From an uncultured archaeon (lineage in GTDB: Archaea; Asgardarchaeota; Thorarchaeia; Thorarchaeales; Thorarchaeaceae): DNA of 32,000 nt. The stretch spans positions 300,001 through 332,000 of the forward strand of contig CAZYLT010000001.1 of the NCBI GenBank assembly GCA_964648855.1, in the 5' to 3' direction. The notes beneath the pieces were generated by a model. That model saw nothing but the letters and a program-made list of their open reading frames with translations, did not search any database and was not told the origin of the DNA. Positions 1 to 12,368 of this stretch are shown one piece after another (the stretch's first letter is position 1; every line of letters begins with the position of its first letter). The position numbers and the translations under genes were made by a program.

Positions 1-3000
1 TACGTAAGGGGGGACACAACAGCAGCAAGTGCAGCAATTGTAGCAGGATCTGCAGCGCTGTTAATGGAGGCATTCGATAGAGCAACTCCAATAGTTATTG
101 GAAATACTTTGCGTGATACAGCAACACCTTTGAAATATGGTGCCAATGACGCTGGCGCGGGGCTGCTCAATCTTCCAGCAGCCTTTGATGAGTTAAGCAG
201 AAACCAGAAACCAATTTCGCTGCACAATAGAACAACGGGAGTGCCCCTTCTAGCCTTTGGCCTTCTGACAACTTCAGGGCTGGATGCAGAAACAACGCTA
301 TTGATGAGTAGTTTTGGAACCAGTGTTGTAGCTCTAGACGAGAGAGATAACCAAGAGAGCTCTATTCACTTATTGATGGGAATGTTCTCAATAAAATGGA
401 ATGACCTTGAGCCAATGAACCTGATGAATTTCAACGTAAAGAGAGAGTTACATCAAGTTGCTATAGAGTCGGAGCAGAGCAACTACAATAGATGGATAGG
501 TGTTCTTTCTTACAATGAACAGGTCTATTTGACCTTACTAGTGGAATCGTATAATTTGACTCTCTTCGAGGACACCCCAATTACAGCCTTCAAGATTACC
601 CCCCATATCTTGAATCTTGGTATGAACCCTATTTACAACGTGAGTCTTTATCTTGATTGCTCGCTTGATCTGTTTCTGGACGGCCGTGATGATTATGGAA
701 GGTACGCTCTGGGAAATCAACAGCTATTTGCATATGGAATTTCAGAGGATAATCGCAATTTCTACTTTGGTATGAACTCCAGCAAGCCGCTCTCCGCTTT
801 TGAAGTTGGCAACTCTTCAGAAGTGTCTGACCATGTGTCATCAGACAACCTCACGGGAAATACACAATTCTATGGGGAAGTCGGCCTTGGCATGAAGTGG
901 GACTTTGGTACATTGGACCTAAATGAATTGGCTAATGTGACAGTTTCGCTTGGATTCGGTGCAAATCGAACCACACTTGATGCATCAATCAGGAGAATGT
1001 GGGAACTTGAGCCATCAGCCACATTCTCACAGCGTGGAGACCTCCTTGTCGTTGAAGCAGACATTCCCCGAACAGCTCAATCCGGCCAGAATTATCAATC
1101 ACGTGCTGTCATTATGAACATCGGGGTAGAGAGTAGTGAGGCAGTGGCAATTCTAGCTATTGCGAATGGCTCACAGCAAGAAGGGGCAGCCTTTACACGA
1201 TATTTTTCATTTGATGAAATCGAACCTTTTAATGCTAGAGTCATAACGACCGAATGGAGCCCTGAAGAAAAAGGAATACACACGGCTGCGTGGGCGGTGG
1301 CAACTGGATTCGAATTTGCATTGCAACTTGTTGCAAGTCCTGCCGAGACGCTTTCAACAAGTGGAGTGAGTCTCTTGGACGACTTTCTTCTAAGAGACCT
1401 CTTTGTGATAACGCCGATTCAGTCAACATCGATTTTTCCAAAAGAAGTGCCATCTGGACCATTTGATTTGCGTTTTCCAATAGACTTCGGACTCTATTAC
1501 TTCAGTCTGTCAACAACCGTGAGTTTGGGAAATCTAACAGTAGAGAAATTTGGCAATGCTGCTGATTGGGGAAACATCACGCTCCCAGCATCTGAGAATG
1601 TGGATGGATTTTACAACTTCTCCCTATTCACCTTAGTACCGCCAATCACAGTTGACGGATATCACAGATGTGACTACGTAGTAAATTCCGAATTTGGATG
1701 GACAATGAATCTCACTTTGGAGAGTGATTTGGAATATCCTCGCGCAATGATGCTGCTTGATACATCTCATGGAGGTGGCTTTAGTGCGTTTGGCGATTTC
1801 GGAGGCGGTATGTCTATAGATATTGGAGGCGACGGGGGAGGAGGGTTGCCAAGTTTCGCCCTAGCGCAGGAAACGGAGCAAGAGGAAGGGCTGGACTTCG
1901 AATTTGGGATAGGAGATATTGATTCGATAGGTTCCCTGACAGATATGCTGGAGGACTTTAGACTCACCACGTTCTCAGGCTTATCTAATATGAAGAGGCA
2001 GATGTCGGAACGCGGTCTGAATCTCATCGAAACGCCAGGAATAGAACTGGACAGCACACTTCTTTCTCAATTCTCTTCTATCTTCATGTTTCAGCCATCG
2101 GAAGGCTTCAACAGCACCGATGTGAGTATGCTTAGAAACTATTCCGCCAGCTATGGTAGACTGATATTGTTCGGGGATTCCGATGATAGAGCGAATCTCA
2201 CAGGAATAAACCAACTGCTACAACCGTACGGTTACCGAATGCAAGGGGAACACCAAACAGAAAATACAACCGAGATATATCAGAATTCCATTCTTGGAGA
2301 AGGAATGACCTGTATGTGGCTTGGCGGCGGAACTTTCATTGAAAACAATCAATCACGCGCCCAAGTAGGCTTAAACGGAAGGCCTGTTGTTCTCCTAGAC
2401 CACACACGCCCAGAACTGGCACTCTTTGGATCGTCACGCATATTCATGAACAAACATCTCGTGAAATGCAATAATAGCATTCTATTGGAAAACCTCATAG
2501 AGTATCTATTGAGAGATACGCTAACAACCGAAACAAGCCTCTCAGGGGATACGAACCGATTCCCTGTTGGAAAAAGCGTCTATCTGAATCTCAAGGTGTG
2601 GGATTATTATGGCGACCCTGTTGACGATCTCACTGTGGCAATCGCATTCGAATTGCCAAACGGTAATTTTTCCTATTTCATTGCCGGCTTTGTTGAGGAT
2701 GGACTTTACTCATCTCAATTTCTGCCGGCGTATTGGGATTCGAATGGAACCATTCACGGAATATTCATAGTCTTGAGGGAGAAATATGCTGGTACTTATG
2801 CCAGTGTGACATTTGAACTGTATGCGCCCCCGCGTACAAATGGCACAACGAATGGTGAGCCTCTCTTCACTTTAGTCCAAGTTGCATATATCACATCCAT
2901 TAGCATTTTTGGAGTTGTTTTGGTCGGCCTGGCGTGGAACAAGTACCGAAGAGGAGTGCGTCTTAGAATACCGGAGATAGATACTGAATTGGGTCAGGAT

Positions 3001-3174
3001 ATTGACAATACATTGAACATGTTGCTTGCTGTCTTTACACAAATGGAGGATGTGATTCAACGGGACGACTTGGACCGGATTCAGAAGGTCGAGGCGTTGC
3101 GGAGTCTGATGGTAAGCATGGAGAAGGCTCAAGAAGAGTACGAAGATGTTAGCGATAGAGTAGGAGGCGTATAG
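1..3174 (+). CDS. Membrane-anchored subtilase (S8)-like protein, probably inactive, with Ig/CARDB-like and GIFT (IFT52/GldG/S1P-type) domains; 5'-truncated by the window edge
   Basis: Frame 1 is open from base 1 and reads YVRGDTTAASAAIVAGSAALLMEAF...LRDTA...GAGLLN, matching the C-terminal S8 helix motif. Ig-like segment at about 1036-1290. GIFT-like segment LLDTSH...FSGLSNMKRQM...LILFGD...GINQLLQPYG at about 1741-2520. TM helix at about 2863-2937, followed by a helical tail. Many N-x-S/T sequons. Confidence 0.8.
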   Translation, partial: YVRGDTTAASAAIVAGSAALLMEAFDRATPIVIGNTLRDTATPLKYGANDAGAGLLNLPAAFDELSRNQKPISLHNRTTGVPLLAFGLLTTSGLDAETTLLMSSFGTSVVALDERDNQESSIHLLMGMFSIKWNDLEPMNLMNFNVKRELHQVAIESEQSNYNRWIGVLSYNEQVYLTLLVESYNLTLFEDTPITAFKITPHILNLGMNPIYNVSLYLDCSLDLFLDGRDDYGRYALGNQQLFAYGISEDNRNFYFGMNSSKPLSAFEVGNSSEVSDHVSSDNLTGNTQFYGEVGLGMKWDFGTLDLNELANVTVSLGFGANRTTLDASIRRMWELEPSATFSQRGDLLVVEADIPRTAQSGQNYQSRAVIMNIGVESSEAVAILAIANGSQQEGAAFTRYFSFDEIEPFNARVITTEWSPEEKGIHTAAWAVATGFEFALQLVASPAETLSTSGVSLLDDFLLRDLFVITPIQSTSIFPKEVPSGPFDLRFPIDFGLYYFSLSTTVSLGNLTVEKFGNAADWGNITLPASENVDGFYNFSLFTLVPPITVDGYHRCDYVVNSEFGWTMNLTLESDLEYPRAMMLLDTSHGGGFSAFGDFGGGMSIDIGGDGGGGLPSFALAQETEQEEGLDFEFGIGDIDSIGSLTDMLEDFRLTTFSGLSNMKRQMSERGLNLIETPGIELDSTLLSQFSSIFMFQPSEGFNSTDVSMLRNYSASYGRLILFGDSDDRANLTGINQLLQPYGYRMQGEHQTENTTEIYQNSILGEGMTCMWLGGGTFIENNQSRAQVGLNGRPVVLLDHTRPELALFGSSRIFMNKHLVKCNNSILLENLIEYLLRDTLTTETSLSGDTNRFPVGKSVYLNLKVWDYYGDPVDDLTVAIAFELPNGNFSYFIAGFVEDGLYSSQFLPAYWDSNGTIHGIFIVLREKYAGTYASVTFELYAPPRTNGTTNGEPLFTLVQVAYITSISIFGVVLVGLAWNKYRRGVRLRIPEIDTELGQDIDNTLNMLLAVFTQMEDVIQRDDLDRIQKVEALRSLMVSMEKAQEEYEDVSDRVGGV

Positions 3175-3175
3175 A

Positions 3176-11004: not shown

Positions 11005-11084
11005 CTGGTTTCTAGTAAATTTATCCGCGGATATGTTTAATCGACTACCAAGACTGAAGGGCAACTGAAGGAATTGTTCGCGGG

Positions 11085-12368
11085 ATGAAGCGGGAAGAAA
11101 TGTTGAGCTCAATCATGAATATCCTAAGCGGGATAAAAATCGATGCAGAGGTTGAGCCGGAGAGAATACGACCCTCCTTAGTGGATACTAAGAAACGCCG
11201 TGATCTCAAGACACTTGAGGACCAGCTTCGTTTGACCTTAGATGAGCTTGAACAGACGTCATCTCTAGGAATACTTCTCAGCCGGTTGGCAAACCTACAT
11301 CTTCAAGAGGGAAACTTTTCTTCTGCAATCCTGCTTTACGAACGAGGATTACGGGTCGAGCCAAAACAACCCGCAGCATGGACAAACCTGGGTTTGGCAA
11401 AGATACTCTCAAACAACTCAGATACTGCAATTGGGTGCCTTGATACTGCCCTTGAGCTGGATTCCACCAATTCGCGAGCAATCTGTTTCAAGGGCCTGGC
11501 CCATCTGAAACAAGGTTCTGTTGCTGAAGCTAAGAGAATATTCAGCGGCATGGTGGATTATCAGCCCAAATGCGAACGTGCGTTGATTGGTCTCGGATTA
11601 TGCCACAAGAAGAGAGGCGAACTGGATAAAGCAATCTCATGGTTCATGAAGGCAGACATGGAAAATAGTGGAAGTCTTGCAGCAGAACTGGAGTTGGGCA
11701 AGCTATATCTGGAACAGAAAGAGTACAGGAAAGCTGAGGAGGCCTTTCACGAGGCCGTGAAGATGGATGGTGGGAACCCAATAGCAATCATAGGGCTGGG
11801 CGATGCCCAATTTGGGAAAGGAAAATACGATGAAGCATTATACTTCTACAATAAGGCTCTGACAGCAATAAAGGATAATTCTGATCTTTGGGTGAAGAAA
11901 GGCGACGCTCATAAGATGAATCGTTCATATGAAGAAGCTGCTGAAGCATATCAAAAAGCAATACAAGCAAATCGCGAATATATTCCAGGTTGGATAAAAG
12001 CAGCGCAGATTTATGTTCTGATGAAGGACGCAGGTACCGCCCTTGAGTTCTTTAACACAGCAATAGCGCTTGCTCCAGACAACGCTGAGGTCGCTCATCA
12101 ACGGGGACTAGTTAATCTCTCAATTGGCAATCTGGAGGCGGCCTTGGCGGACTTTGACAAAGCTTTTTCGGTTGATCCAAGTAATCCCGAACATCTATAC
12201 TACAGAGCAGGTATCTTAGAGAAGCTTGAACGATTTGATGATGCAATGAGAACATGGCAAATTGCCAGAGACCTTTATGAAGACATGGAGAACACCACCC
12301 GAGAAGCAGAGTGCAATGCAAAGATGAAGCGTCTAAAACGCGTCCACGATTTGCAGGAGTATGAATAA
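11085..12368 (+). CDS. Tetratricopeptide repeat (TPR) protein
   Basis: Roughly ten 34-aa helical repeats, e.g. AWTNLGLAK...AIGCLDTALELDS and LWVKKGDAH...AAEAYQKAIQAN. No signal peptide. Confidence 0.92.
   Translation: MKREEMLSSIMNILSGIKIDAEVEPERIRPSLVDTKKRRDLKTLEDQLRLTLDELEQTSSLGILLSRLANLHLQEGNFSSAILLYERGLRVEPKQPAAWTNLGLAKILSNNSDTAIGCLDTALELDSTNSRAICFKGLAHLKQGSVAEAKRIFSGMVDYQPKCERALIGLGLCHKKRGELDKAISWFMKADMENSGSLAAELELGKLYLEQKEYRKAEEAFHEAVKMDGGNPIAIIGLGDAQFGKGKYDEALYFYNKALTAIKDNSDLWVKKGDAHKMNRSYEEAAEAYQKAIQANREYIPGWIKAAQIYVLMKDAGTALEFFNTAIALAPDNAEVAHQRGLVNLSIGNLEAALADFDKAFSVDPSNPEHLYYRAGILEKLERFDDAMRTWQIARDLYEDMENTTREAECNAKMKRLKRVHDLQEYE

Follow-up and report, generated by a model that had tools for sequence, protein, structure and literature searches.

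In Flavobacterium, the GldA/GldF/GldG system is encoded in one operon and consists of an ATP-binding cassette (ABC) permease of the ABC-2 type, an ATPase and a membrane-anchored extracytoplasmic protein with a GIFT domain; its function is unresolved, and in gliding bacteria it accompanies giant surface adhesins. A GIFT domain is also present in the site-1 protease (S1P, MBTPS1), whose layout runs from an S8 peptidase domain to a GIFT domain and a membrane helix, and which is the sole member of the PCSK family bearing such a domain (PMC11231238). Within the Asgard archaea, homologues of WBP1 are reported to be restricted to Heimdallarchaeia (PMC10307638). The present work concerns an operon that reaches into a window of 32,000 nucleotides (G000:C1:300001-332000) within a 3.1-Mb Thorarchaeota assembly, and encodes the components of an ABC-2 transporter with two ATPases, a pseudo-subtilase with a GIFT domain (gene 1), a giant surface protein (gene 3) and a tetratricopeptide repeat (TPR) protein. 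The reading that we favor, with a probability of roughly 0.55, is that the two-ATPase transporter works with the pseudo-protease/GIFT protein as an extracytoplasmic binding platform that does not cleave, to which the giant and TPR proteins were added as a client or co-receptor.

Organization of the Operon

Positions 1-12368 of the window are filled by four co-oriented open reading frames (ORFs), whose coordinates agreed with those of a first-pass annotation made from the sequence alone. That annotation had also described a 1-nt gap between the first two genes, an ATGA overlap before the third and a TPR gene following after 173 nt, all of which were borne out by our reading of the sequence, and it had proposed looking upstream for an ABC-2 permease. 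This permease was found at L002:11907-13100, next to the gene of a first ATPase (ATPase 1; L002:13100-14794) that overlaps it. Both genes sit directly upstream in the same orientation. The unit consists of six genes rather than four, in the order ABC-2 permease, ATPase 1, pseudo-subtilase/GIFT (gene 1), ATPase 2 (gene 2), giant protein (gene 3) and TPR protein, and the window region 1-12368 covers its 3′ two-thirds. Gene 1 begins 21 nt after the end of the ATPase 1 gene and is complete at L001:316-4674 (1452 amino acids), with its start 1184 nt upstream of the window, its end at window position 3174 and its TAG stop codon at 3172-3174.

The start of gene 2 (3176..4156, forward strand) required closer reading, since its frame contains no ATG, GTG or TTG before a TTG at 3245, and the conserved N-terminus of the protein is encoded from 3176. 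The codon at this position is CTG, located 1 nt past the TAG stop of gene 1 and 8 nt past a GGAGG motif. In three relatives, a GTG codon occupies exactly the position of CTG 3176, again 1 nt past the stop of the upstream gene, and the orthologues of ATPase 2 are 326-332 amino acids long, among them a protein of 326 amino acids with 93% identity. These two observations indicate that the 1-nt gap is real, and translation of ATPase 2 in this genome appears to proceed from a non-canonical CTG start. The GGAGG ribosome-binding site of gene 2 doubles as coding sequence for the conserved last residues of gene 1 (VGGV). Genes 2 and 3 are joined by the ATGA overlap at 4153-4156, and the 173 nt between gene 3 and the TPR gene contain A/T-rich, TATA-like stretches; the TPR gene is probably driven by its own promoter.

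The permease is a protein of 397 amino acids with six helices and an external loop of ~170 amino acids between helices 1 and 2, and it matched the ABC-2 families PF12698 (2.9e-28) and PF01061 (3.9e-13). ATPase 1 has 564 amino acids, including an N-terminal extension of 240 amino acids that weakly matched a TrmB sugar-binding domain (3.8e-8); the search of this extension against PDB sequences gave nothing usable. ATPase 2, with 326 amino acids, matched ABC_tran (5.5e-27), and its Walker A, signature, Walker B and H-loop motifs are all intact; its orthologues are 72-80% identical, and the NCBIfam matches to DrrA and GldA-type proteins remained below their cut-offs. Both ATPases matched ABC_tran and are motif-complete, as read straight from the translations, and thus an ABC-2 permease and motif-intact ATPases are present in one operon.

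Conservation of the Gene Cluster in Asgard Archaea

The gene arrangement is far from what chance would give, as almost all genomes of the host's own family (f1) share it. An orthologue of gene 1 was present in 69 of 76 genomes of this family, and the giant protein was found directly downstream in all 23 high-quality genomes, with a length of 2236-2301 amino acids. The sister family f2 has all six genes in the same order. In family f12, five loci are collinear for permease, ATPase 1, pseudo-subtilase and ATPase 2 and have no giant or TPR gene, and two further loci (L074 and L081) are collinear up to the contig ends. In family f19, the ABC genes are adjacent to the pseudo-subtilase gene but divergent (2 of 2 loci). 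The core genes are therefore linked in four Asgard families (f1, f2, f12, and f19) and unlinked in a fifth (f7), and the neighborhood is conserved, as the proposal of the first-pass annotation requires. All named members of the wider family of gene 1 proteins belong to the Asgard archaea (Thor-, Loki-, Hel-, Hod- or Promethearchaeota).

This family-by-family arrangement indicates that the core is an Asgard-wide four-gene module, to which the giant and TPR genes were added within the Thorarchaeota order. No paper describing the operon was found in the literature on GIFT/GldG, on Asgard DUF4350, S1P or pseudoproteases, on OST48 and on surface adhesins, in line with the earlier proposal that the system is undescribed.

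The Subtilase Domain of Gene 1

The product of gene 1 spans the membrane once; its ectodomain of ~1330 amino acids consists of an S8 domain, a beta-rich region, a GIFT domain and a beta-sandwich, and is followed by a membrane helix and a helical tail. The full protein matched Peptidase_S8 (PF00082) with an E-value of 3.4e-41 over profile positions 1-283 of 288, showing that the S8 fold extends along the whole domain. The C-terminal end of this domain lies at window positions 1..153 (forward strand), where codon 22-24 encodes Ala at the position of the catalytic Ser. Comparison of the S8 profile with PDB sequences revealed Tk-SP of Thermococcus (3afg; 3.6e-52) as the closest solved subtilase, and in the alignment with this protein the nucleophile Ser is replaced by Ala403 and the oxyanion Asn by Asp300, with Asp162 and His206 retained. 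The gene 1 protein thus lacks the combination of an Asp-His-Ser triad and an oxyanion Asn that marks an active S8 peptidase, and its subtilase is predicted from these residues to be catalytically dead.

The same loss was observed in the orthologues. Of 112 full-length orthologues from Thorarchaeota, 58 have Thr, 48 have Ala and 6 have Ser at the Ser position, and the oxyanion residue is Asp in all 112. In ~30 remoter clusters (50% identity), obtained by exhaustively searching 1.84 billion representative proteins, the Ser position is mainly Ala or Gly, the His is frequently missing and Asp stands at the oxyanion position. As the loss of the active site runs through the wider Asgard family, these proteins form an old pseudo-enzyme lineage and not a case of recent loss. 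The first-pass annotation had proposed a dead, S1P-like subtilase, and the changes from Ser to Ala and from Asn to Asp, shared across the wider family, substantiate this. The architecture of S1P (S8, P-like region, GIFT and membrane helix) is present in gene 1; its working triad is not, and no specific sequence kinship to it was found. S1P was absent from the best 60 of 94 PDB matches of the S8 profile, and the S1P GIFT domain was not matched by the GIFT sequence profile at E <1.

The middle region that follows (residues 470-960; window 223..1695, forward strand) is beta-rich and conserved, with 64% mean column identity in alignment A2 and many N-x-S/T sequons. It gave a faint match to CARDB (0.06), and the PDB sequence search was without a match. 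At the other end of the protein, hydropathy and the tail alignment place a membrane helix (2881-2937) and a helical cytoplasmic tail of ~78 amino acids in positions 2881..3174 (forward strand), and this tail is strongly conserved (alignment A11).

The GIFT Domain and the Sandwich of Gene 1

A GIFT domain had been located by the first-pass annotation at 1741-2520, and these coordinates proved accurate. Sequence profile, structural model and fold matches place it at residues ~975-1235 of gene 1 (window 1738..2520, forward strand), where it is broken by a disordered Gly/acidic insert of ~45-60 amino acids. A profile of residues 940-1345 matched the solved GIFT domains of IFT52 (5fms) with E-values of 4.6e-7 to 6.7e-6, and the AlphaFold model of the stretch reached a predicted local distance difference test score (pLDDT) of 85 outside the disordered insert. 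In the VIA fold ranking, in which rows less than 1 Z apart were treated as tied, the model matched IFT52 best (Z 23.2, root-mean-square deviation 2.2, 192 residues), followed by S1P (8UW8; Z 18.7, 230 residues), OST48 (Z 18.1, 293 residues including the following sandwich; the alignments span 38-406) and Wbp1 (Z 16.8), and generic glutamine-amidotransferase-like (GATase1-like) folds reached at most Z 14.8. Sequence and fold therefore both place this domain in the GIFT group, above the generic class-I glutamine-amidotransferase-like fold. The Pfam family IFT52_GIFT fell below its cut-off here (window 2401-2526) and is recorded for most orthologues, whose records list PF23355 and PF14258. The GIFT domain is followed by an Ig-like beta-sandwich (2521..2823, forward strand; model residues 297-397, all strand), which in the VIA ranking matched macroglobulin and invasin Ig domains with Z ~11.

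The distant relatives of the GIFT part belong to the GldG class, with DUF4350, ABC_transp_aux and IFT52_GIFT matched in 47-48 of the 53 proteins scanned. In addition, four metagenomic proteins (P0194, P0202, P0235, and P0243) combine intact subtilase motifs with a match to the GIFT portion of the profile of gene 1. The Pfam scan of P0194 showed Peptidase_S8, CARDB and DUF4350/GIFT, an S1P-like architecture with a live active site, and such intact S8-CARDB-GIFT proteins retain the motifs DTG, HGTH, AAGN and GTSMA. Their existence indicates that subtilases fused to GIFT domains also occur outside S1P and this Asgard family.

When GIFT domain and sandwich were searched together by Foldseek, OST48/Wbp1 came first (2e-12, 350-370 columns). 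This result, together with the VIA match to OST48, bears on a different explanation, in which the transporter would handle glycans or lipid-linked oligosaccharides, exporting the carrier in the manner of Wzm/Wzt or TarGH, with the GIFT-sandwich-membrane helix part as a lumenal or extracellular platform for glycans or partners, like OST48/Wbp1 in oligosaccharyltransferase, and with sequon-rich surface proteins as the clients. The weak TrmB match of the ATPase 1 extension and the number of N-x-S/T sequons, 27 in the gene 1 protein and 39 in the giant protein, would fit such a role. A sugar-binding function has been put forward for GIFT domains (PMC7226087), but as a proposal only. The locus contains no glycosyltransferase or AglB gene, and the Pfam family PF03345 (OST48_N) had no match in this genome, nor any over the cut-off in its family, whereas the true Asgard homologues of OST48 are separate ORFs elsewhere. 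We regard the explanation through glycan handling, taken jointly with its sequon-rich clients, as unlikely.

The OST48_N matches over the cut-off were ORFs of 430-590 amino acids at L064-L067, in Asgard families f4, f22, and f27, which agrees with the reported restriction of WBP1 homologues to Heimdallarchaeia (PMC10307638). The gene 1 protein was also considered as the Asgard WBP1/OST48 homologue of Eme et al. (2023) itself, and this candidate was rejected, since OST48_N matched over its cut-off only these separate ORFs of other families.

A Working Model for the Core Transporter

The favored reading of the operon as a two-ATPase ABC-2 transporter with a non-cleaving platform builds on which genes are present, on the dead active site, on the folds, and on the conservation and linkage described here; that the parts form one complex, which substrate they would transport and what role the giant protein would play we infer. 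In this model, the core would consist of the six-helix permease, the two different ATPases and the gene 1 protein as an extracytoplasmic accessory subunit, placed in the position that GldG holds beside GldA and GldF. The ATPases would drive the permease to export, or to push on, a hydrophobic or glycan-bearing component of the envelope, and the pseudo-protease/GIFT ectodomain would bind and hold, but not cleave, either this component or a surface protein. Two genes joined the operon within the Thorarchaeota order, one for a surface protein with a fixed length of ~2250 amino acids, a propeller head, a Ca2+-rigidified stalk and a conserved cytoplasmic sandwich, the other for the TPR protein; both would most likely act as client, co-receptor or adaptor of the core.

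Several results weigh against this model. In family f7, the pseudo-subtilase gene is unlinked to the ABC genes at all four loci, and the N-extended ATPase and the second ATPase are encoded together on a different contig. The presence of two ATPase genes beside one permease gene is unusual and unexplained. The PDB sequence search with the permease gave no informative solved relative (E 0.087 only). The NCBIfam model TIGR03522 for GldA scored 141.8 bits on the operon, below its cut-off of 402.6, and the GldF and GldG models matched neither the permease nor the gene 1 protein. Since GldA remained below the cut-off and GldF and GldG were unmatched, the parallel with GldAFG is one of architecture and not of orthology. 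A complex prediction that paired ATPase 2 with the gene 1 tail scored 0.00, which speaks neither for nor against a contact.

The core could also act by mechanotransmission, in which ATP hydrolysis would shift the extracytoplasmic pseudo-enzyme and so switch the binding, tension or assembly of the adhesin or another surface protein, with nothing crossing the membrane, as in FtsEX-EnvC, MacB and LolCDE. It comes closest to the ATP-driven machine for displaying or moving a long adhesin that the first-pass annotation had imagined. EnvC is a dead LytM factor that works with FtsEX, and the gene 1 protein likewise carries a dead enzyme domain preserved for very long beside an ABC module. Both single-pass partners have strongly conserved cytoplasmic parts, the length of the stalk is fixed and the gene junctions are tightly coupled, all of which would suit a mechanical coupling. 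The permease, however, is of the ABC-2 type (PF12698, PF01061) and not of the FtsX/MacB type VII used by known mechanotransducers, and families f12 and f19 possess the conserved core without the adhesin. Mechanotransmission is a possible but less likely explanation, to be kept in mind but not preferred.

The Giant Surface Protein and the TPR Protein

The giant protein of 2252 amino acids begins with a signal peptide and a head formed by an eight-blade Ca2+-loop beta-propeller (4153..5352, forward strand), as defined by its translation, alignment A5 and profile matches, with loops of the DxDxDxxxE type. A stalk of ~1700 amino acids follows (5350..10437, forward strand), in which TSP3-type Ca2+-binding repeats were recognized by profile (TSP3_bac, 6.3e-94) and by motif count (~80 motifs of the DxDxDxxxD type, with a period of 23 residues and 24% Asp). 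Hydropathy, alignment A6 and a structural model define the C-terminal part (10477..10911, forward strand) as a membrane helix (10477-10533), a linker and a cytoplasmic beta-sandwich of ~100 amino acids. A giant Ca2+-binding, stalked surface protein with these parts had been described by the first-pass annotation and was found as such.

The cytoplasmic end comprises 125 amino acids, and its sandwich was modeled with a pLDDT of 90.9. No other part of the giant protein is as well conserved as this tail, which has 78% column identity in alignment A6; among orthologues recovered from whole genomes, the tails are ~72% identical to that of this genome, whereas most propellers of the family are 37-46% identical. 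Such conservation argues for a constrained cytoplasmic partner. Neither the PDB sequence search (without a usable match) nor a word-index homologue search with the tail (nothing found) identified relatives. In the complete Thorarchaeota genome CP070761.1 (L003:15398-17749), the giant gene encodes only 784 amino acids, which align with the first 784 residues of the protein in the window and stop within the repeats, without membrane helix or tail; this version is either an assembly repeat collapse or a real truncation.

The TPR protein (11085..12368, forward strand; TPR_1, 7e-47) has 427 amino acids and is predicted to be cytoplasmic. Of 30 loci of the host family, 21 have an orthologue downstream of their giant gene, as does the sister family f2, and the co-oriented TPR gene is thus a recurrent part of the arrangement. 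A different protein of the TPR_12 type, with ~316 amino acids, is encoded convergently to the pseudo-subtilase gene in families f7 and f19 (L013:8766-9725 and L014:8899-9849), with 39% identity between the two copies. As a member of the system it was set aside, its orthologue here being located on another contig (G000:C12:35018-35809).

The propeller, the tail and the TPR protein, taken with the GIFT domain, are the elements that led the first-pass annotation to tie the locus to eukaryotic intraflagellar transport (IFT) and the BBSome. In its full form, this explanation holds that GIFT domain, propeller, ear and TPR are homologous as a set to IFT52, to BBS2, BBS7 and BBS9, and to the TPR subunits of IFT and the BBSome, and that the locus is a forerunner of these complexes or of vesicle coats. 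In its favor, the host belongs to the Asgard archaea, the GIFT domain has its highest-ranking structural match in IFT52, and the propeller matched BBS2_Mid in Pfam just over the cut-off (2e-6), beside Beta-prop_CGLA (1.9e-9). Against PDB sequences, the propeller profile matched BBS2 (1.5e-11), BBS7 (9.4e-7) and BBS1 (2e-4), but BBS2 did no better than an archaeal PQQ-like propeller (3hxj; 5.3e-12), and designer PQQ-type propellers ranged from 3.7e-27 to 1e-9; further matches were ITFG2 (7e-11) and the Bap1-type propeller 6mlt (1.8e-8). The propeller is therefore not closer to the BBS2/BBS7 type than to generic prokaryotic propellers. No integrin was found among its PDB profile matches at E up to 1, with a distant kinship still possible. 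The tail gave a similar picture in the VIA ranking, in which the gamma-COP appendage (Z 11.5) was tied with transglutaminase (11.3) and PDIP38/ApaG (11.1), followed by GAE domains (10.0-10.1) and BBS9 (9.3), all tied or nearly so. These matches do not single out an adaptin-like fold for the tail, and the term "ear-like" seems fair as a description of the modeled fold, not as evidence of kinship.

Other observations also speak against such an origin. Bacterial-type DUF4350 and ABC_transp_aux proteins matched IFT52_GIFT more strongly (3e-24) than gene 1 did; propeller and GIFT domain lie outside the cell here but in the cytosol in IFT and BBS proteins; propeller and ear lie on opposite sides of the membrane; and the giant and TPR proteins are confined to one order. 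GIFT domains, TPR and Ca2+-loop-type propellers are all common in prokaryotes. As the likenesses of propeller and tail are equaled by generic folds, the link of the locus to IFT and the BBSome is not supported. The locus does resemble eukaryotic proteins of ciliary transport, but only in sharing common folds; a forerunner of these complexes is very improbable, and the present evidence has no bearing on the origin of cilia or vesicle coats.

A further proposal combines several of these elements in an Asgard-specific, ATP-powered machine, in which the ATPases, acting through the tail of gene 1 and through the sandwich and TPR protein, would load, tension or move the adhesin of 2250 amino acids, and in which the S8-GIFT protein would share its ancestry with S1P. 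We consider this combination decidedly unlikely; if true, archaea would possess in this operon a counterpart to the machinery of adhesin-based gliding or contact.

Neighboring Genes

Just upstream of the operon, on the opposite strand, a divergent gene (L002:9373-11850) encodes a protein of 825 amino acids (P0008), for which no Pfam or PDB sequence match was obtained. Its position is kept in three other Thorarchaeota loci (775-818 amino acids), and it was not found adjoining the operon in other Asgard families. Downstream, an ORF of 1116 amino acids (window 12380-15730, reverse strand) is convergent with the TPR gene, and only a GNAT acetyltransferase domain (residues 37-163) was recognized in it, which leaves ~950 amino acids without an assignment. 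It is followed by a family X DNA polymerase (15790-17502, reverse strand) that carries a PHP domain in addition to its Pol beta-like thumb, palm and HhH motifs. Further along the window, two antiporter-like membrane subunits of the Mrp/complex-I type (Proton_antipo_M) are encoded at 26333-30379 (forward strand), with a short ORF between them.

Comparison with Known Systems

The operon is present in nearly every Thorarchaeota genome examined, and its core is found across Asgard lineages, where the current database labels are only "S8 family serine peptidase" and "ABC transporter." The dead peptidase, the S1P/OST48-style GIFT domain and the partnership with a two-ATPase ABC-2 transporter correct this annotation, and define a testable complex for the few laboratories that culture Asgard archaea or express their proteins.

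The individual proteins have counterparts of different kinds. The subtilase domain of gene 1, for which weak NCBIfam matches to CspC and CspBA were obtained, resembles CspC of Clostridioides difficile in having a subtilase fold without a working triad, presumably for binding and not for cutting; CspC, however, is a soluble protein of spore germinant signaling, without GIFT domain, membrane anchor or ABC partner. With S1P (8UW8), the gene 1 protein shares the order of signal peptide, pro-like region, S8 domain, beta-rich region, GIFT domain, membrane helix and cytoplasmic tail, but its active site is dead, its S8 domain is nearest to archaeal Tk-SP-type subtilisins by sequence, and its middle region has ~500 amino acids where S1P has a small P-like domain. 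OST48/Wbp1 share with it the succession of GIFT domain, beta-sandwich, single membrane helix and short tail, whereas this module is here the C-terminal third of a far larger protein tied to an ABC transporter.

The giant protein shares an eight-blade Ca2+-loop propeller (6mlt) and a long TSP3 array with proteins of the Bap1 type of V. cholerae and with CglD of M. xanthus. The NCBIfam model of CglD scored 454 bits on it, by way of the repeats, but the giant protein contains no VWA domain or lipoprotein signal. Integrin alpha is marked by an FG-GAP propeller with thigh and calf domains behind it, and the stalk here consists of TSP3 repeats. The combination of a propeller head, ~80 TSP3 motifs at a fixed length, a membrane helix and a folded cytoplasmic sandwich is an architecture of its own.

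As a whole, the nearest known system by architecture is GldA/GldF/GldG, along with the wider class of ABC_transp_aux/DUF4350 auxiliary proteins. Both systems combine an ABC-2 permease, an ATPase and a membrane-anchored extracytoplasmic GIFT protein in one operon, and both are associated with giant surface proteins. The system described here differs in that its GIFT protein, with ~1450 amino acids, also contains a dead subtilase and other domains, in that two distinct ATPases, one of them N-extended, accompany a permease with a large extracellular loop, and in that its host is an archaeon, without outer membrane or type IX secretion system.

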